From a virus (taxonomy: Duplodnaviria > Heunggongvirae > Uroviricota > Caudoviricetes), in IMG/VR virus record IMGVR_UViG_2663763154_000010: a stretch of 10,342 nucleotides of DNA. One strand, 5' to 3'. Under the pieces are notes generated by a model. That model saw only the letters and a list, made by a program, of their open reading frames with translations. It searched no databases and had not been told where the DNA came from. Positions 1,949 to 10,342 of the stretch are shown here, piece by piece. Made by a program: the position numbers and the translations under genes. Numbering within the stretch: the stretch's first letter is position 1; every line of letters starts with the position of its first letter.

Positions 1949-2542
1949 ATGCTTATTGGCTATGTACGCGTGTCAACAAATGACCAGAACACGGAATTGC
2001 AGCGTAATGCGCTGGAGTGTGCAGGATGTGAGCTGATTTTTGAGGATAAAATCAGCGGCACGAAGTCTGACCGACCGGGACTGAAAAAACTGCTCAGAAC
2101 ATTATCAGCAGGTGACACTCTGGTAGTCTGGAAGCTGGACAGGCTGGGGCGTAGTATGCGGCATCTGGTCATTCTGGTTGAGGAACTGCGCGAACGCGGC
2201 GTTAATTTTCGCAGCCTGACAGATGCTATTGATACCAGCACGCCGATGGGGCGTTTTTTCTTTCATGTGATGGGTGCCCTGGCAGAAATGGAGCGAGAAC
2301 TCATTGTCGAGCGGACACGCGCCGGACTGGAAGCAGCCAGAGCCAAAGGTCGTATTGGTGGCAGACGACCGAAACTCACCACGAGTGAGTGGGAGCAGGT
2401 CGGACGGTTGCTGGCTGCGGGGGAATCTCGTCAACGTGTGGCGCTGATTTTTGATATTGGCCTGTCCACGCTCTATAAAAAATTCCCCTCATCAGCGACA
2501 AAGAATAAATTGTGTCATCCCTTAGCCAACCGGGACAAATAG
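1949..2542 (+). CDS. Site-specific DNA invertase, serine recombinase (Gin/Hin/Pin/Cin family)
   Basis: The translation from the third Met, MLIGYVRVSTNDQNTELQRNAL...GRRPKLT...STLYKKFP, has the resolvase/invertase N-terminal catalytic domain with the active-site Ser in the YVRVS motif and a C-terminal helix-turn-helix. AGGGGG lies 7 nt upstream of the ATG at 1949. The ORF track start at 1943 is too close to that RBS. Confidence 0.93.
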   Translation: MLIGYVRVSTNDQNTELQRNALECAGCELIFEDKISGTKSDRPGLKKLLRTLSAGDTLVVWKLDRLGRSMRHLVILVEELRERGVNFRSLTDAIDTSTPMGRFFFHVMGALAEMERELIVERTRAGLEAARAKGRIGGRRPKLTTSEWEQVGRLLAAGESRQRVALIFDIGLSTLYKKFPSSATKNKLCHPLANRDK

Positions 2543-2601
2543 CCTGACATCTCCGGCACAACTGAAAATACCACTCACCTATTAACCACGGAGTTAAACG
2601 G

Positions 2602-3792
2602 ATGAGTGACTATCATCACGGCGTGCAGGTGCTGGAGATTAACGACGGCACCCGCGTCATTTCCACCGTATCCACCGCCATTGTCGGCATGGTCTGCACA
2701 GCCAGCGATGCGGATGCGGAAACCTTCCCCCTCAATAAACCGGTGCTGATTACCAATGTGCAGAGCGCAATTGCAAAGGCCGGTAAAAAAGGCACGCTGG
2801 CGGCATCGTTGCAGGCCATCGCCGACCAGTCAAAACCGGTCACCGTTGTCGTGCGTGTGGAAGATGGCACCGGTGACGACGAGGAAACGAAACTCGCGCA
2901 GACCGTTTCCAATATCATCGGCACCACCGACGAAAACGGTCAGTACACCGGACTGAAAGCCCTGCTGGCGGCGGAATCGGTAACCGGTGTTAAACCGCGT
3001 ATTCTCGGCGTGCCGGGACTGGACACCAAAGAGGTGGCTGTTGCACTGGCATCAGTCTGTCAGAAGCTGCGCGCTTTCGGGTATATCAGCGCATGGGGCT
3101 GTAAAACCATTTCCGAGGTGAAAGCCTACCGCCAGAATTTCAGCCAGCGTGAGCTGATGGTCATCTGGCCGGATTTCCTCGCATGGGATACGGTCAGCAG
3201 CACCACCGCCACCGCGTATGCCACCGCCCGTGCGCTGGGGCTGCGCGCTAAAATCGACCAGGAGCAGGGCTGGCATAAAACGCTGTCCAATGTCGGGGTA
3301 AACGGTGTTACCGGCATCAGTGCCTCTGTATTCTGGGATTTGCAGGAGTCCGGCACCGATGCTGACCTGTTGAACGAGTCAGGTGTCACAACGCTGATTC
3401 GCCGTGACGGTTTCCGCTTCTGGGGTAACCGTACCTGCTCGGATGACCCGCTGTTCCTTTTTGAAAACTATACCCGCACCGCGCAGGTGCTGGCCGACAC
3501 GATGGCTGAGGCGCACATGTGGGCGGTGGACAAGCCCATCACTGTAACGCTGATTCGCGACATCGTTGACGGCATCAATGCCAAATTCCGTGAGCTGAAA
3601 ACAAACGGCTATATCGTGGATGCGACCTGCTGGTTCAGCGAAGAATCCAACGATGCGGAAACCCTCAAGGCCGGAAAACTGTATATCGACTACGACTATA
3701 CACCGGTGCCTCCTCTTGAAAACCTGACCCTGCGCCAGCGTATTACCGATAAATACCTGGCAAATCTGGTCACCTCGGTTAACAGCAATTAA
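2602..3792 (+). CDS. FI: Contractile tail sheath protein
   Basis: 396 aa, the same length as P2 gpFI. The N-terminus MSDYHHGVQVLEINDGTRVISTVSTAIVGMV is recalled from P2-family sheath proteins. GGAG RBS; position upstream of FII-E-T-U-D. Confidence 0.95.
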   Translation: MSDYHHGVQVLEINDGTRVISTVSTAIVGMVCTASDADAETFPLNKPVLITNVQSAIAKAGKKGTLAASLQAIADQSKPVTVVVRVEDGTGDDEETKLAQTVSNIIGTTDENGQYTGLKALLAAESVTGVKPRILGVPGLDTKEVAVALASVCQKLRAFGYISAWGCKTISEVKAYRQNFSQRELMVIWPDFLAWDTVSSTTATAYATARALGLRAKIDQEQGWHKTLSNVGVNGVTGISASVFWDLQESGTDADLLNESGVTTLIRRDGFRFWGNRTCSDDPLFLFENYTRTAQVLADTMAEAHMWAVDKPITVTLIRDIVDGINAKFRELKTNGYIVDATCWFSEESNDAETLKAGKLYIDYDYTPVPPLENLTLRQRITDKYLANLVTSVNSN

Positions 3793-3804
3793 GGAGCCTG
3801 ACCG

Positions 3805-4323
3805 ATGGCAATGCCGCGCAAACTCAAGTTAATGAACGTCTTTCTGAACGGCTACAGCTATCAGGGCGTCGCGAAGTCCGTCACGCTACCAAAACTGACC
3901 CGTAAGCTCGAAAACTATCGCGGTGCGGGGATGAACGGCAGCGCACCGGTAGACCTCGGCCTTGATGACGATGCGCTGTCAATGGAGTGGTCGCTCGGTG
4001 GCTTCCCGGATTCGGTTATCTGGGAGCTTTACGCCGCAACCGGTGTGGATGCCGTGCCGATTCGTTTTGCAGGCTCTTACCAGCGCGACGATACCGGCGA
4101 AACGGTGGCCGTCGAAGTGGTCATGCGTGGACGTCAGAAAGAAATCGACACCGGTGAGGGTAAACAGGGTGAAGACACCGAGTCGAAAATCTCCGTAGTC
4201 TGCACCTATTTCCGGCTGACGATGGACGGTAAGGAGCTGGTCGAAATCGACACCATCAACATGATTGAGAAGGTGAACGGCGTCGACCGGCTGGAGCAAC
4301 ACCGCCGCAATATCGGCCTGTAA
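3805..4323 (+). CDS. FII: Tail tube protein
   Basis: 172 aa with AAGGAG RBS, immediately after FI. The N-terminus MAMPRKLKLMNVFLNGYSYQGVAKSVTLPKL matches P2 gpFII. Confidence 0.95.
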   Translation: MAMPRKLKLMNVFLNGYSYQGVAKSVTLPKLTRKLENYRGAGMNGSAPVDLGLDDDALSMEWSLGGFPDSVIWELYAATGVDAVPIRFAGSYQRDDTGETVAVEVVMRGRQKEIDTGEGKQGEDTESKISVVCTYFRLTMDGKELVEIDTINMIEKVNGVDRLEQHRRNIGL

Positions 4324-4379
4324 TTTTCATCCGGTCAGCCAGGCTGACCGGTTAACCCTGATTCAGAAGTGAGAAAACC

Positions 4380-4655
4380 ATGAACAAAGAAAATGTGATT
4401 ACCCTGGACAATCCGGTCAAGCGTGGTGAGCAGGTCATCGAACAGGTCACGCTGATGAAACCCAATGCCGGGACGCTGCGCGGTGTCAGTCTGGCAGCGG
4501 TCGCGAACTCCGAAGTCGATGCACTGATTAAGGTGCTGCCGCGCATGACGGCACCGATGCTGACCGAGCAGGAAGTCGCCGCGCTGGAACTGCCTGACCT
4601 TGTGGCGCTGGCCGGTAAGGTGGTCGGTTTTTTGTCGCCGAACTCGGTGCAGTGA
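4380..4655 (+). CDS. E: Tail assembly chaperone E (zero-frame product)
   Basis: 91-aa ORF between the tube and tape-measure genes. It contains the slippery heptamer TTTTTTG at 4628-4634, 7 codons before its stop. Confidence 0.9.
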   Translation: MNKENVITLDNPVKRGEQVIEQVTLMKPNAGTLRGVSLAAVANSEVDALIKVLPRMTAPMLTEQEVAALELPDLVALAGKVVGFLSPNSVQ

Positions 4656-4807
4656 CGTTTCCGAAAAATCTGTCGGTCGATGACCTGATGGCGGATGTGG
4701 CAGTGATATTTCACTGGCCGCCATCAGAACTGTATCCCATGAGCCTGACCGAACTCATCACATGGCGCGAAAAGGCGCTCCGGCGAAGCGGAAACACGAA
4801 TGAGTAA
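4380..4807 (+). CDS. E+E': Tail assembly chaperone E+E' (programmed -1 translational frameshift product; slip at 4628-4634)
   Basis: The -1 frame downstream of T6G is open to TAA at 4805-4807 and encodes VAELGAVTFPKNLSVDDLMADVAVIFHWPPSELYPMSLTELITWREKALRRSGNTNE. The predicted fusion is 142 aa, and the E' end overlaps the start of T, as recalled for P2. Confidence 0.8.
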
Positions 4808-7247
4808 CAATGTAAAATTACAGGTATTACTCAGGGCAGTTGACCAGGCATCCCGCCCGTTTAAATCCATCCGTGCAGCGAGCAAATCGCTGTCGGGGGA
4901 TATCCGGGAAACACAAAAATCACTGCGCGAGCTGAACGGTCAGGCATCCCGTATTGAGGGATTTCGCAAGACCAGTGCACAGCTCGCCGTGACTGGTCAT
5001 GCACTTGAAAAGGCTCGGCAGGAAGCCGAAGCCCTTGCCACACAGTTTAAAAACACCGAACGTCCGACCCGTGCTCAGGCGAAAGTGCTGGAATCCGCAA
5101 AGCGTGCGGCGGAGGACTTACAGGCGAAATATAACCGCCTGACGGATTCCGTTAAACGCCAGCAGCGGGAACTGGCCGTTGTGGGAATTAATACCCGCAA
5201 TCTTGCACGTGATGAGCAGGGACTGAAAAACCGTATCAGTGAAACCACCGCACAGCTTAACCGTCAGCGTGATGCGCTGGCGCGTGTCAGTGCGCAACAG
5301 GCAAAACTTAACGCAGTAAAACAGCGTTATCAGGCAGGCAAGGAACTGGCCGGAAATATGGCCTCGGTGGGCGCTGCCGGTGTGGGGATTGCGGCGGCGG
5401 GAACGATGGCCGGAGTTAAGCTGCTGATGCCCGGTTATGAGTTTGCGCAGAAAAACTCAGAATTGCAGGCCGTGCTCGGAGTGGAAAAAGACTCCGCCGA
5501 AATGACCGCACTACGCAAACAGGCGCGCCAGCTCGGCGACAATACCGCCGCCTCGGCGGATGATGCGGCCGGTGCACAGATAATCATCGCGAAAGCGGGT
5601 GGGGATGTTGATGCCATTCAGGCGGCAACGCCGGTCACGCTGAATATGGCGCTGGCGAACCGCCGCACGATGGAAGAAAACGCCGCCCTGCTGATGGGGA
5701 TGAAATCCGCCTTTCAGCTTTCAAACGATAAGGTCGCTCATATCGGGGATGTTCTCTCCATGACGATGAACAAAACCGCCGCCGATTTTGACGGCATGAG
5801 CGATGCGCTGACCTATGCCGCACCTGTGGCAAAAAATGCCGGTGTCAGCATTGAAGAAACCGCCGCAATGGTCGGGGCGCTGCATGATGCAAAAATCACA
5901 GGCTCAATGGCGGGGACGGGAAGCCGTGCCGTGTTAAGCCGCCTGCAGGCACCGACGGGAAAAGCATGGGATGCACTCAAAGAGCTTGGAGTGAAAACCT
6001 CAGACAGCAAGGGAAACACCCGGCCAATATTTACCATTCTGAAAGAAATGCAGGCCAGTTTTGAGAAAAACCGGCTCGGTACTGCCCAGCAGGCTGAATA
6101 CATGAAAACTATTTTCGGGGAGGAGGCCAGCTCAGCCGCCGCCGTGCTGATGACTGCCGCCTCAACCGGAAAGCTGGACAAACTGACCGCTGCGTTTAAA
6201 GCCTCAGACGGGAAGACCGCAGAGCTGGTAAATATCATGCAGGACAACCTCGGCGGTGACTTTAAGGAGTTTCAGTCCGCTTATGAGGCGGTGGGGACTG
6301 ACCTGTTTGACCAGCAGGAAGGCGCACTGCGTAAGCTCACACAGACGGCCACAAAGTATGTGTTAAAACTCGACGGCTGGATACAGAAAAACAAATCACT
6401 GGCGTCAACCATTGGCCTCATTGCCGGTGGCGCGCTGGCGCTTACTGGCATCATCGGTGCCATTGGTCTTGTAGCCTGGCCGGTTATCACCGGTATCAAT
6501 GCCATCATCGCGGCAGCAGGCGCAATGGGGGCAATCTTCACGACGGTTGGCAGTGCCGTTATGACGGCCATCGGGGCGATTAGCTGGCCGGTTGTGGCCG
6601 TGGTGGCCGCTATTGTCGCCGGGGCGTTACTTATCCGTAAATACTGGGAGCCTGTCAGCGCATTCTTTGGCGGTGTGGTTGAAGGGCTGAAAGCGGCATT
6701 TGCGCCGGTGGGGGAACTGTTCACGCCACTTAAGCCGCTGTTTGACTGGCTGGGTGAAAAGTTACAGGCCGCGTGGCAGTGGTTTAAAAACCTGATTGCC
6801 CCGGTTAAAGCCACCCAGGACACCCTGAACCGTTGCCGTGACACGGGCGTCATGTTCGGGCAGGCACTGGCTGACGCGCTGATGCTGCCGCTTAATGCGT
6901 TCAACAAACTGCGCAGCGGTATTGACTGGGTACTGGAAAAACTCGGTGTTATCAACAAAGAGTCAGACACACTTGACCAGACCGCCGCAAGGACTCATGC
7001 CGCCACGTATGGCACCGGTGGTTATATTCCGGCGACCAGCTCTTATGCAGGTTATCAGGCTTATCAGCCAGTCACGGCACCGGCTGGCCGCTCTTATGTG
7101 GACCAGAGTAAAAACGAATATCACATCAGCCTGACGGGTGGTACTGCGCCGGGGACACAGCTTGACCGCCAGTTACAGGATGCACTCGAAAAATACGAGC
7201 GGGATAAACGTGCGCGCGCCCGTGCCAGCATGATGCATGACGGTTAA
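4800..7247 (+). CDS. T: Tail tape measure protein
   Basis: 815 aa, the same length as P2 gpT. The N-terminal region is rich in Q/R/A/L/E, consistent with coiled coil. There is a long Gly/Ala/Ile-rich hydrophobic block (about 6400-6660) and a C-terminal domain. It follows the E/E' frameshift pair as in other tail modules. Confidence 0.95.
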   Translation: MSNNVKLQVLLRAVDQASRPFKSIRAASKSLSGDIRETQKSLRELNGQASRIEGFRKTSAQLAVTGHALEKARQEAEALATQFKNTERPTRAQAKVLESAKRAAEDLQAKYNRLTDSVKRQQRELAVVGINTRNLARDEQGLKNRISETTAQLNRQRDALARVSAQQAKLNAVKQRYQAGKELAGNMASVGAAGVGIAAAGTMAGVKLLMPGYEFAQKNSELQAVLGVEKDSAEMTALRKQARQLGDNTAASADDAAGAQIIIAKAGGDVDAIQAATPVTLNMALANRRTMEENAALLMGMKSAFQLSNDKVAHIGDVLSMTMNKTAADFDGMSDALTYAAPVAKNAGVSIEETAAMVGALHDAKITGSMAGTGSRAVLSRLQAPTGKAWDALKELGVKTSDSKGNTRPIFTILKEMQASFEKNRLGTAQQAEYMKTIFGEEASSAAAVLMTAASTGKLDKLTAAFKASDGKTAELVNIMQDNLGGDFKEFQSAYEAVGTDLFDQQEGALRKLTQTATKYVLKLDGWIQKNKSLASTIGLIAGGALALTGIIGAIGLVAWPVITGINAIIAAAGAMGAIFTTVGSAVMTAIGAISWPVVAVVAAIVAGALLIRKYWEPVSAFFGGVVEGLKAAFAPVGELFTPLKPLFDWLGEKLQAAWQWFKNLIAPVKATQDTLNRCRDTGVMFGQALADALMLPLNAFNKLRSGIDWVLEKLGVINKESDTLDQTAARTHAATYGTGGYIPATSSYAGYQAYQPVTAPAGRSYVDQSKNEYHISLTGGTAPGTQLDRQLQDALEKYERDKRARARASMMHDG

Positions 7248-7261
7248 GGAGGTGACGAAAA

Positions 7262-7741
7262 ATGATGCTCGCGTTAGGTATGTTTGTTTTTATGCGCCAG
7301 ACGCTGCCACACCAGACCATGCAGCGTGAATCAGATTATCGCTGGCCGTCAAATTCCCGTATCGGTAAACGGGATGCCTTTCAGTTTCTCGGTGTTGGCG
7401 ATGAAAACATCACGCTTGCCGGTGTGCTTTATCCTGAACTGACCGGCGGAAAGCTGACGATGACCACGCTCAGGCTGATGGCAGAGGAAGGCCGGGCGTG
7501 GCCGTTGCTGGATGGCACCGGCATGATTTACGGCATGTATGTCATCAGCAAGGTGAGTGAAACAGGGAGTATTTTCTTTGCAGACGGCACACCCCGAAAA
7601 ATTGATTTTACGCTGTCGCTCACCCGTGTTGATGAATCACTGGCCGCGCTTTATGGCGATATCGGTAAACAGGCGGAATCGCTCATCGGTAAGGCTGGCA
7701 GTATGGCGGCTAAATTCACGGGTATGACGGGGGCGGAATAA
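7262..7741 (+). CDS. U: Tail protein U
   Basis: 159 aa with AGGAGG RBS. The sequence MMLALGMFVFMRQTLPHQTMQRESDYRWPSNSRIGKRDAFQF matches P2 gpU. Its stop overlaps the D start (TAATG). Confidence 0.95.
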   Translation: MMLALGMFVFMRQTLPHQTMQRESDYRWPSNSRIGKRDAFQFLGVGDENITLAGVLYPELTGGKLTMTTLRLMAEEGRAWPLLDGTGMIYGMYVISKVSETGSIFFADGTPRKIDFTLSLTRVDESLAALYGDIGKQAESLIGKAGSMAAKFTGMTGAE

Positions 7742-8904
7742 TGCTGGATGCGCGGACATTTTATGCAGGCAGTACGCTGACGCCGGATTACATGCTGATG
7801 CTCGACAGCAGGGATATTACCGGCAATATCAGCGACCGTCTGATGAGCATGACCCTGACGGATAACCGGGGCTTTGAGGCTGACCAGCTTGATATTGAAC
7901 TGAACGATGCCGACGGGCAGGTCGGGCTGCCGGTTCGTGGCGCTGTCCTGACGGTGTATATCGGCTGGAAAGGTTTTGCCCTGGTATGCAAAGGGAAATT
8001 TACCGTTGATGAGGTTGAACACCGGGGCGCGCCGGATGTGGTCACCATCCGTGCCCGGAGTGCAGATTTTCGCGGGACGCTCAATTCCCGCCGGGAAGGC
8101 TCATGGCATGACACCACGCTCGGTGCGATTGTTGAGGCGATAGCCTCCCGTAACAGGCTGGAAGCCAGTGTCGCTCCGTCACTGGCAGGAATTAAAATCC
8201 CGCACATCGACCAGTCGCAGGAGTCTGATGCGAAATTCCTGACCCGTCTTGCAGAACGCAACGGCGGTGAGGTCTCGGTAAAAATGGGAAAACTGTTGTT
8301 TCTCAAAGCGGGGCAGGGGGTGACGGCCAGTGGTAAAAAAATCCCGCAGATTACCATCACCCGCAGCGACGGCGACCGTCATCATTTTGCGATTGCTGAC
8401 CGTGGAGCTTACACCGGCGTAACGGCAAAGTGGTTACACACCAAAGACCCGAAGCCGCAAAAGCAGAAGGTAAAACTGAAACGCAAAAAGAAAGAGAAAC
8501 ACCTGCGCGCACTGGAGCACCCGAAAGCGAAACCGGTCACGCAGAAGAAAGCGCCAAAAGTACCGGAAGCGCGCGAAGGTGAATACATGGCCGGTGAGGC
8601 TGACAACGTTTTTGCACTGACCACGGTATATGCCACGAAAGCACAGGCCATGCGCGCCGCTCAGGCGAAGTGGGACAAACTGCAACGGGGTGTGGCGGAG
8701 TTCTCCATCAGCCTGGCTACCGGTCGGGCAGATATTTACACGGAAACACCGGTTAAAGTGTCAGGCTTTAAGCGCGTCATAGACGAGCAGGACTGGACAA
8801 TCACTAAGGTGACACATTTTCTGAATAATAGCGGCTTCACGACGTCCTTAGAGCTTGAGGTCAGGCTTTCTGATGTGGAGTACGAAACAGAAGATGATGA
8901 GTGA
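7741..8904 (+). CDS. D: Tail protein D (late control gene D family)
   Basis: 387 aa, the same length as P2 gpD. Translationally coupled to U. Contains the family's Lys-rich low-complexity linker (KPQKQKVKLKRKKKEKHLRALEHPKAKPVTQKKAPK). Confidence 0.95.
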   Translation: MLDARTFYAGSTLTPDYMLMLDSRDITGNISDRLMSMTLTDNRGFEADQLDIELNDADGQVGLPVRGAVLTVYIGWKGFALVCKGKFTVDEVEHRGAPDVVTIRARSADFRGTLNSRREGSWHDTTLGAIVEAIASRNRLEASVAPSLAGIKIPHIDQSQESDAKFLTRLAERNGGEVSVKMGKLLFLKAGQGVTASGKKIPQITITRSDGDRHHFAIADRGAYTGVTAKWLHTKDPKPQKQKVKLKRKKKEKHLRALEHPKAKPVTQKKAPKVPEAREGEYMAGEADNVFALTTVYATKAQAMRAAQAKWDKLQRGVAEFSISLATGRADIYTETPVKVSGFKRVIDEQDWTITKVTHFLNNSGFTTSLELEVRLSDVEYETEDDE

Positions 8905-8922
8905 TGTGATTTATTTATCTAT

Positions 8923-8951
8923 TTGTTTTGTAAAGATAAATTAACTAAAAT
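8923..8951 (+). promoter_or_regulatory. Putative sigma70-type promoter for ogr
   Basis: TTGTTT (8923-8928), a 17-bp spacer, then TAAAAT (8946-8951), about 35 nt upstream of the ogr ATG. The -35 hexamer is weak, so this is a by-eye call. Confidence 0.3.
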
Positions 8952-8985
8952 GGCAACATCAACAAAACCGGAAGAGGTGCTCGCG

Positions 8986-9204
8986 ATGTTTCATTGTCCT
9001 TTATGCCAGCATGCCGCACATGCGCGTACAAGCCGCTATATCACTGACACGACAAAAGAGCGTTATCACCAGTGTCAGAACGTGAATTGCAGCGCCACGT
9101 TCATCACCTATGAGTCGGTACAGAGATACATCGTGAAGCCGGGAGAAGTCCACGCCGTAAGGCCGCACCCGTTGCCGTCAGGGCAGCAAATTATGTGGAT
9201 GTGA
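8986..9204 (+). CDS. ogr: Ogr, zinc-finger transcriptional activator of late genes
   Basis: 72 aa starting MFHCPLCQHAAHARTSRYITDTTKERYHQCQNVNC, with the C-X2-C-X22-C-X4-C zinc-binding arrangement. GAGG lies 8 nt upstream of ATG 8986. The longer ORF from 8923 is an upstream in-frame extension, and 8923-8951 is better read as the promoter. Confidence 0.9.
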   Translation: MFHCPLCQHAAHARTSRYITDTTKERYHQCQNVNCSATFITYESVQRYIVKPGEVHAVRPHPLPSGQQIMWM

Positions 9205-9212
9205 TCACAAAA

Positions 9213-9240
9213 ATAGCCCCTCAGTTGAGGGGCTTTATTT
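9213..9240 (+). terminator. Rho-independent terminator after ogr
   Basis: Perfect 8-bp GC-rich stem AGCCCCTC (9215-9222) / GAGGGGCT (9227-9234) with a 4-nt loop, followed by TTATTT. Confidence 0.7.
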
Positions 9241-9247
9241 ATGGTCG

Positions 9248-9267
9248 ATGTGGACGCTATGTGGACA
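9248..9267 (+). repeat. Two direct repeats ATGTGGAC spaced 11 bp apart; candidate integrase arm-type binding sites
   Basis: ATGTGGAC at 9248-9255 and 9259-9266 (the second extends to TGTGGACA at 9260-9267), between the ogr terminator and host DNA, where the P' arm of a P2-type att site is expected. Confidence 0.4.
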
Positions 9268-9332
9268 GCGGTTGACATAAATCCATTTATATCATCAGGT
9301 TAGGTGCTTTTTTGTGACACCATCCCTGTCTT

Positions 9333-9358
9333 CCCCCACATGATGTGGGGTTTTTTTT
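9333..9358 (+). terminator. Rho-independent terminator, probably the host cpxP 3' UTR / CpxQ terminator
   Basis: Stem CCCCACA (9334-9340) / TGTGGGG (9344-9350) with a 3-nt loop, followed by T8 (9351-9358). Confidence 0.7.
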
Positions 9359-9439
9359 ATCCTCAATTTGCCTGCTGCTTAATGCATTGCAGATGATTTG
9401 CTTCCGTTATACTAGCGTCAGTTGATAGCGGGAGTATTT

Positions 9440-10342
9440 ATGAATCAATCTTATGGACGGCTGGTCAGTCGGGCGGCGATTGCTGCGACGGCGATGGCTT
9501 CGTTGCTATTGCTGATTAAAATTTTTGCATGGTGGTATACCGGGTCGGTGAGTATTCTCGCCGCGCTGGTGGATTCGCTGGTGGATATCGGCGCGTCGTT
9601 GACGAATTTACTGGTGGTGCGATATTCCCTGCAACCTGCCGACGATAATCACTCGTTTGGTCACGGTAAAGCTGAGTCCCTCGCGGCGCTGGCGCAAAGT
9701 ATGTTTATCTCCGGTTCGGCACTATTCCTGTTTTTGACGGGTATTCAACATCTGGTATCTCCAACACCGATGACAGATCCAGGCGTCGGGGTTATCGTGA
9801 CAATTGTGGCGCTAATTTGTACGATTATCCTTGTCTCGTTTCAGCGGTGGGTGGTGCGCCGGACGCAAAGCCAGGCGGTGCGGGCTGATATGCTACATTA
9901 CCAGTCTGATGTTATGATGAACGGCGCAATTCTGCTGGCGCTGGGGTTGTCTTGGTACGGCTGGCATCGCGCCGATGCTCTGTTTGCATTGGGAATCGGC
10001 ATCTATATTTTATATAGCGCGTTACGCATGGGATATGAGGCGGTACAGTCATTACTGGATCGCGCATTGCCTGATGAAGAACGGCAAGAAATTATTGATA
10101 TCGTGACTTCCTGGCCGGGTGTTAGCGGCGCTCACGATCTTCGCACGCGGCAGTCAGGGCCGACCCGCTTTATTCAGATTCATTTGGAAATGGAAGACTC
10201 TCTGCCTTTGGTTCAGGCACATATGGTGGCGGATCAGGTAGAGCAGGCTATTTTACGGCGTTTTCCGGGATCGGATGTGATTATCCATCAGGACCCCTGT
10301 TCCGTCGTACCCAGGGAGGGTAAACGGTCTATGCTTTCATAA
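9440..10342 (+). CDS. fieF: Cation diffusion facilitator family Fe2+/Zn2+ efflux transporter FieF (YiiP)
   Basis: 300 aa starting [59 protein letters not shown], recognised as E. coli FieF. GGGAG lies 5 nt upstream of ATG 9440. The ORF track start at 9422 is a TTG extension. Confidence 0.93.

Follow-up and report, generated by a model that had tools for sequence, protein, structure and literature searches.

The probable attR junction of a WΦ-type P2-like prophage between cpxP and fieF of Escherichia coli, with its attachment core in the 3′ part of the sRNA gene cpxQ

Phage integration at the 3′ end of a tRNA or tmRNA gene, with restoration of that gene, is well documented for phages such as 186, HP1 and Fels-2 (PMC3448106). 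At those sites a phage block identical to the host rebuilds the 3′ part of the RNA and a truncated duplicate is left at the other junction, which is likewise the arrangement described here, although the target in this case is a 3′-UTR-derived sRNA together with an mRNA terminator; phage 186 also differs in its Int group, since the integrase considered here belongs to the group with P2-type arm sites. Among the P2-like phages themselves, the core of classical P2 matches exactly, as its reverse complement, the final 27 nt of K-12 cyaR, and it also corresponds to the Rho-independent terminator of an Hfq-dependent sRNA (CyaR). In K-12 this core (retrieved locus L008, region 615-1321) is followed by a P arm and an ogrK-D′ relic, the cryptic prophage PR-X. 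The orientation of the two systems is nevertheless opposite: the ogr side of P2 abuts the intact cyaR, whereas it is the int side of WΦ that abuts the intact cpxQ.

The closest relatives of the att site described here are WΦ (Peduovirus Wphi, NC_005056) and, grouped with it, L-413C, fiAA91-ss and R18C. The genome paper of E. coli W lists “cpxP-fieF: Wphi1 (P2)” among the prophage insertion sites (PMC3032704), and Nilsson et al. 2011 give MG1655 position 4104392 as the site of WΦ and L-413C (PMC3448106). The feature is, in other words, already known, being the documented WΦ attachment site in E. coli. The versions of the MG1655 sequence are presumably shifted by about 2 kb, in which case position 4104392 would fall inside the core, at 4106344-4106390 of NC_000913.3. 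The primary description of the WΦ core is that of Ahlgren-Berg et al. 2009, where it is reportedly a 47-nt identity at 88.6 min. The description of the WΦ site predates the naming of CpxQ, and no link between CpxQ and WΦ attB was found in the literature searched.

The window studied here (the whole stretch of 10,342 nt) contains, with a probability that we put at about 93%, the right-hand junction (attR) of a WΦ-type P2-like (Peduovirus) prophage in the cpxP-fieF gap of E. coli (Table 1). According to the ORF listing and Pfam, a rightward block of P2-type late genes ends with ogr, whose counterpart is annotated ogrK in lysogens sharing this junction, and after a gap of 235 nt comes fieF, 99% identical to K-12 fieF and annotated under that name both in K-12 and in the lysogens. 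The order in K-12 is cpxP, cpxQ (sRNA gene, b4716) and fieF, with nothing else between them. A preliminary description of this DNA had proposed that the phage genes end with ogr and its terminator, that an attR-type junction of a P2-like prophage lies between ogr and the chromosomal fieF, and that the insertion is in the cpxP-fieF gap. All of this holds: ogr, the terminator hairpin (9215-9234) and fieF follow one another, K-12 is matched from 9316 and WΦ up to 9361, and in five lysogens sharing the junction int is directly followed by cpxP at the far end. The alignment of 9205-9440 to prophage-free K-12 that was suggested there gives identity from 9316 only, and a match over the whole interval was not seen.

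Table 1. Features of the window and of the ogr-fieF interval, in window coordinates
Feature	Position	Strand or direction	Basis
Tail sheath FI	2602-3792	rightward	ORF listing, Pfam
Tail tube FII	3805-4323	rightward	ORF listing, Pfam
E/E′	between FII and T	rightward	ORF listing, Pfam
Tape measure T	4800-7247	rightward	ORF listing, Pfam
U	7262-7741	rightward	ORF listing, Pfam
D	7741-8904	rightward	Pfam Phage_GPD
ogr, late-gene activator, last phage gene	8986-9204	+	Pfam Ogr_Delta, 76.9 bits
Rho-independent terminator of ogr and the F operon	9215-9240	+	terminator scan, fold
P-arm Int arm-type sites, two direct TGTGGAC repeats	9248-9268	+	alignment with P2 “Int P arm”
Putative IHF-type bending site and A/T tract	~9276-9309	+	aligned with P2 IHF protein_bind
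Attachment core (common core O of attR)	9316-9361	+	BLAST limits; attR/attP/attL/attB alignments
Putative strand-exchange zone	9316-9342	+	A/C marker at 9343
5′-truncated CpxQ duplicate (nt 15-58)	9316-9358	+	K-12 annotation, terminator scan, folds
Host DNA between core and fieF (B′ side)	9362-9439	+	within 99% K-12 alignment
fieF, chromosomal CDF metal exporter	9440-10342	+	Pfam Cation_efflux and ZT_dimer

The prophage is a mosaic: it is 94% identical to WΦ from 2510 to 9361, and its tail-fibre and invertase module in 1-2500 is of another kind. None of the complete genomes searched with the window matched it better than about 97%. In that left part, a serine recombinase (1943-2542; Resolvase and HTH_7, 177 bits) lies beside tail-fibre and fibre-assembly ORFs on both strands. 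The module (1-2542) is absent from WΦ, its arrangement varies among related lysogens, and it looks like a Gin/Cin-type invertible host-range segment.

A 451-nt query spanning the ogr-fieF gap finds matches in all 5426 complete E. coli genomes. In the prophage-free ones, including K-12, identity begins at 9316, and in free phage genomes (R18C, fiAA91-ss, P24B2 and others) the match ends at 9361. Local BLAST delimits 9316-10342 for K-12, 2510-9361 for WΦ and a match up to 9361 for fiAA91-ss, while the matches to classical P2 and to the K-12 P2 relic end at 9294 and 9295, respectively. The segment 9316-9361 is therefore present in both phage and host, which identifies it as the attachment core. 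When the window (attR) is aligned, four or five ways, with the attP of WΦ and fiAA91-ss, the attL at the other end of the prophage in strain WP3-S18-ESBL-09 and the attB of K-12, one 47-nt block proves common to all of them, GACACCATCCCTGTCTTCCCCCACATG(A/C)TGTGGGGGTTTTTTTTATC. The core of the window reads GACACCATCCCTGTCTTCCCCCACATGATGTGGGG(G)TTTTTTTTATC, where the bracketed G is missing; because of this single loss from a run of five it has 46 nt rather than 47, and 46 of 47 positions match the WΦ attP core. The run is thus G4 here (9347-9350) where WΦ, K-12 and nearly every other copy have G5, although G4T9 variants of the core are present in some other lysogens, and the missing base could be either a real mutation or a homopolymer sequencing error. 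Its absence takes the stem of the hairpin from 8 to 7 pairs (-19.7 versus -16.7 kcal/mol, phage-left context); the G4 hairpin is nonetheless scored as a terminator by the terminator scan.

Beyond the core, the DNA up to fieF equals that of K-12 base for base and is found in all 5426 complete E. coli genomes. The junction, of use mainly for correct annotation, thus pins the right prophage end to a single base, puts the element in the WΦ integration class and shows that neither fieF nor the stretch separating it from the core has been altered. The preliminary description had confined the junction to about 9241-9340, and that estimate stands in part: the putative exchange zone lies almost wholly inside it, but the core overruns it by 21 nt, to 9361.

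To the left of the core, the window follows the layout of the P2 record, in which ogr is succeeded by the terminator, the Int P-arm site, the IHF site, the core, the Cox sites and the Int P′ arm. The alignment with P2 spans the terminator, the Int P-arm site and the IHF site and diverges exactly at the start of the core, so that the architecture (ogr terminator, two TGTGGAC-type repeats, IHF site, core) is shared with classical P2. The terminator consists of the hairpin and a T-rich tail (-16.7 kcal/mol, z = -3.6), scores on the minus strand too, and is homologous to the “terminator for ogr transcript and F operon” of P2 (NC_001895). A resemblance between this terminator region and the P2 core had been pointed out before. 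The architectural likeness is real, and the terminator-like look of the P2 core is explained by its being the CyaR terminator itself; an att function for the ogr terminator is rejected, given that P2 has the same hairpin by ogr and annotates it apart from the core.

The two copies of TGTGGAC (9249-9255 and 9260-9266) are spaced by 11 bp and match the published consensus of P2-type arms, tgTGGaCa (PMC3448106). Viral contigs and genomes yielded 32 distinct WΦ-type P arms. None of these departs from the repeats ATGTGGACGCTATGTGGACAG, the IHF region hardly changes among them (in particular its ATATAAATCCATTTATATCA), and the terminator stem varies in sequence. The arm of the window differs from that of WΦ at two positions only. 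As for the IHF-type site, TATCATCAGGTTA at 9290-9302 has one mismatch with respect to WATCAANNNNTTR and is preceded by an A/T tract; since a consensus search returns 8 matches versus 7.2 expected, the motif alone is not above chance and the assignment of a putative site relies on homology to the one annotated in P2. In some lysogens a cargo gene separates the ogr terminator from the Int P-arm site (none in the window, about 9236-9246). The examples encode hypothetical proteins of 213 aa in strain 6EVA (L006, 5347-5988) and of 133 aa in strain A8, the latter on the opposite strand (L007, 1606-2007), and this gap may be a hotspot for morons or defence genes.

Which integrase would recognise this core? 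Five complete lysogens that share this junction all run from cpxP through core, P′ arm, int, C and cox to ogr, P arm, core and fieF at the right end. The integrase compared directly among these lysogens, that of WP3, is 98% identical to WΦ Int. Likewise, genes 75-99% identical to WΦ Int adjoin the same core in Escherichia sp., Citrobacter, Yokenella and one MAG. WΦ Int and P2 Int share 52% identity, with the first ~40 residues highly similar and the remainder divergent, which fits the combination of shared arm sites and a different core. As int and attL lie outside the window, the integrase of this prophage is deduced from related genomes, and these comparisons support an enzyme of WΦ type whose specificity would differ from that of P2, in agreement with what had been suggested earlier.

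It could still be imagined that an integrase of classical P2 specificity had used a secondary site, because the late genes are P2-like and P2 is generally known to integrate at several sites. The classical 27-nt core, AAAAAATAAGCCCGTGTAAGGGAGATT, had been given exactly in the preliminary description, according to which the att region does not match it; it is indeed the annotated attP core of the P2 reference record and has no match in the window with up to 3 mismatches. It also bears no similarity to the WΦ-type core. Moreover, the P2 alignment breaks off at 9294, short of the core, which in turn is identical to that of WΦ attP save for the one missing G, and the Int genes linked to this core are only ~51-52% identical to P2 Int. 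The WΦ-type core, the absent P2 core and the end of the P2 alignment refute the use of a secondary site by a classical P2 integrase, and we give it practically no credence. The window agrees instead with WΦ in core, P arm, arm repeats, ogr-attP-int layout and site, and departs from it in the G run and in the tail-fibre and invertase module.

A natural marker within the core indicates where the strands may be exchanged. Core position 28 (window 9343, in the loop of the hairpin; K-12 locus L001, 1372) is A in every one of the 115 species representatives, as it is in the attP copies examined (WΦ, fiAA91-ss and two IMG/VR copies), and C in K-12 and its relatives, which means that K-12 carries a minority allele. 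Junctions of the type attR(C) occur at 100% identity in at least nine complete genomes, whereas no attL(C) junction was found for the two main P′-arm types, which were the two tested. In four out of four lysogens with C at attR, attL of the same genome has A, and the IMG/VR copies show C in 3 of 27 attR and in 0 of 18 attL. One of those four lysogens differs in its P′ arm and Int allele, so that no fewer than two separate integrations are represented, and the mapping is to be read as based on that number (two or more) rather than on many. Position 28 would accordingly be host-derived at attR and phage-derived at attL, which places the exchange within 9316-9342 and would make 9343-9361 of the window the original host terminator. 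A plausible candidate for the 7-bp overlap is CCATCCC (9320-9326), flanked by an inverted pair, GACA and TGTC.

The results show where phage and host meet, what core and arm consist of, that the P2 core is lacking, that a WΦ-type Int accompanies this core in other genomes and how the marker segregates, and all of this is consistent with the following mechanism. The phage attP sits between ogr and int, its ogr side offering two Int arm-type sites and an IHF site, presumably used for bending, followed by the 47-nt core identical to the host, and its int side a second pair of arm sites. Recombination in the left part of the core, with cleavage perhaps at the candidate overlap, would split attP in such a way that the int-side half joins cpxP (attL), where phage DNA would rebuild the terminator half of CpxQ, and the ogr-side half joins fieF (attR), where the host terminator would be kept, now preceded by phage DNA, ahead of an intact fieF. 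The prophage studied here would accordingly be expected to have int and attL at its far end. As the terminator is kept and the 78 nt ahead of the gene are unchanged, fieF is not disrupted and should be shielded from transcription running on out of ogr.

The junction could be as described and yet belong to a decayed remnant unable to excise, similar to the ogr-D′ relic by cyaR that shows that such relics exist in K-12. Only ~9.3 kb of the element is visible, its attR core has a 1-nt deletion with respect to all comparators, and one related lysogen bears an IS5-family insertion in a tail fibre gene. The visible late genes, from FI to ogr, are nonetheless all full-length ORFs matching intact phages, lysogens sharing this junction carry complete elements, with ~31-33 kb separating their two copies of the core, and the deletion lies to the right of the putative exchange zone, all of which makes decay unlikely in our view.

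In the K-12 locus (L001) cpxQ spans 1331-1388 and the core 1345-1391, so that the core comprises nt 15-58 of CpxQ plus 3 nt. At attR the copy lacks the first 14 nt, which are replaced by phage DNA, and does not amount to the full 58-nt gene, while it keeps the terminator hairpin (9334-9350) and a U8 tail (9351-9358); at attL the whole 58-nt CpxQ is reconstituted in lysogens. The 5′ seed for nhaB and cfa lies within the missing nt 1-14 (PMC6755755). The first 43 nt of the core are found exactly in 115 species-representative genomes, including Klebsiella, Citrobacter, Enterobacter, Salmonella arizonae, Serratia and Mixta, and in most of them the U-tail is followed by GCC or GTC rather than ATC, meaning that only the part of the core within CpxQ is broadly conserved. 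A scan of the species representatives with the P arm plus core gave no matches. Two of the representatives, Citrobacter amalonaticus P55 and another species (L040, 1090-2990; L095, 5040-6570), show the cpxQ core, an attL-like flank (ATCAA...ACTTAG...), then 1-2 genes and fieF; the genes include a Fic/DOC protein, no integrase is present, and these loci are probably relics of elements using the same site.

The Rfam search of the junction returned nothing at the gathering threshold, and no match named CpxQ was obtained at the window or at the K-12 locus. The only match worth mentioning was RF02628 (Hrs1), on the minus strand, with 28.8 bits at 9293-9358 of the window (gathering score 56.4) and 41.4 bits, also below gathering, at 1316-1388 of L001 in K-12. 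Hrs1 seems to represent a homologue of CpxQ deposited the wrong way round.

Might the truncated copy of attP and attR be expressed? The WΦ-type attP could carry most of CpxQ for a reason beyond restoring the host gene, a speculation drawn from sequence features that we consider very improbable. The portion carried comprises the internal region, the terminator and the Hfq-binding tail, and on this view read-through from ogr or the late F operon would yield a shortened CpxQ-like RNA whose 5′ end is phage-specific, acting as a CpxQ mimic or as a competitor for Hfq. If this were true, such an RNA would tune or block the sRNA arm of the Cpx envelope-stress response during lytic growth or lysogeny. 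The kept hairpin and U8 tail, which give a stable fold, would be in line with it, as would the conservation of 13 nt from the IHF site to the core (TTAGGTG-N-T-N-TTTT-N-T) across divergent arms and a G/UUUU context resembling that of cleavage in the host. Against it, no sigma-70-like site was found in the promoter scan of 8880-9500, which offers no support for an attR-borne transcript (nor for a mapped fieF promoter), and a strong terminator lies only ~80 nt upstream. Furthermore, the nhaB/cfa seed is outside the core (PMC6755755), and binding of Int at core-type sites and of IHF would explain the conservation equally well, so that expression of a functional copy has, to our judgement, a very slim chance of being real.

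The attL junction is found in 794 of the 5426 complete E. coli genomes (788-793 with shorter junction queries) and ~790 of the 5426 carry both junctions; a first attR query recovered 623 genomes only, the lower count being explained by the cargo gene that some prophages have between the ogr terminator and the P arm. In E. coli, each of the two characterised P2-type cores, P2/cyaR and WΦ/cpxQ, is the terminator of an sRNA that depends on Hfq. Phage DNA supplies the terminator half of CpxQ in lysogens, which is the case in about one in seven complete E. coli genomes and is therefore relevant for studies on CpxQ alleles or on the 3′ end of cpxP.
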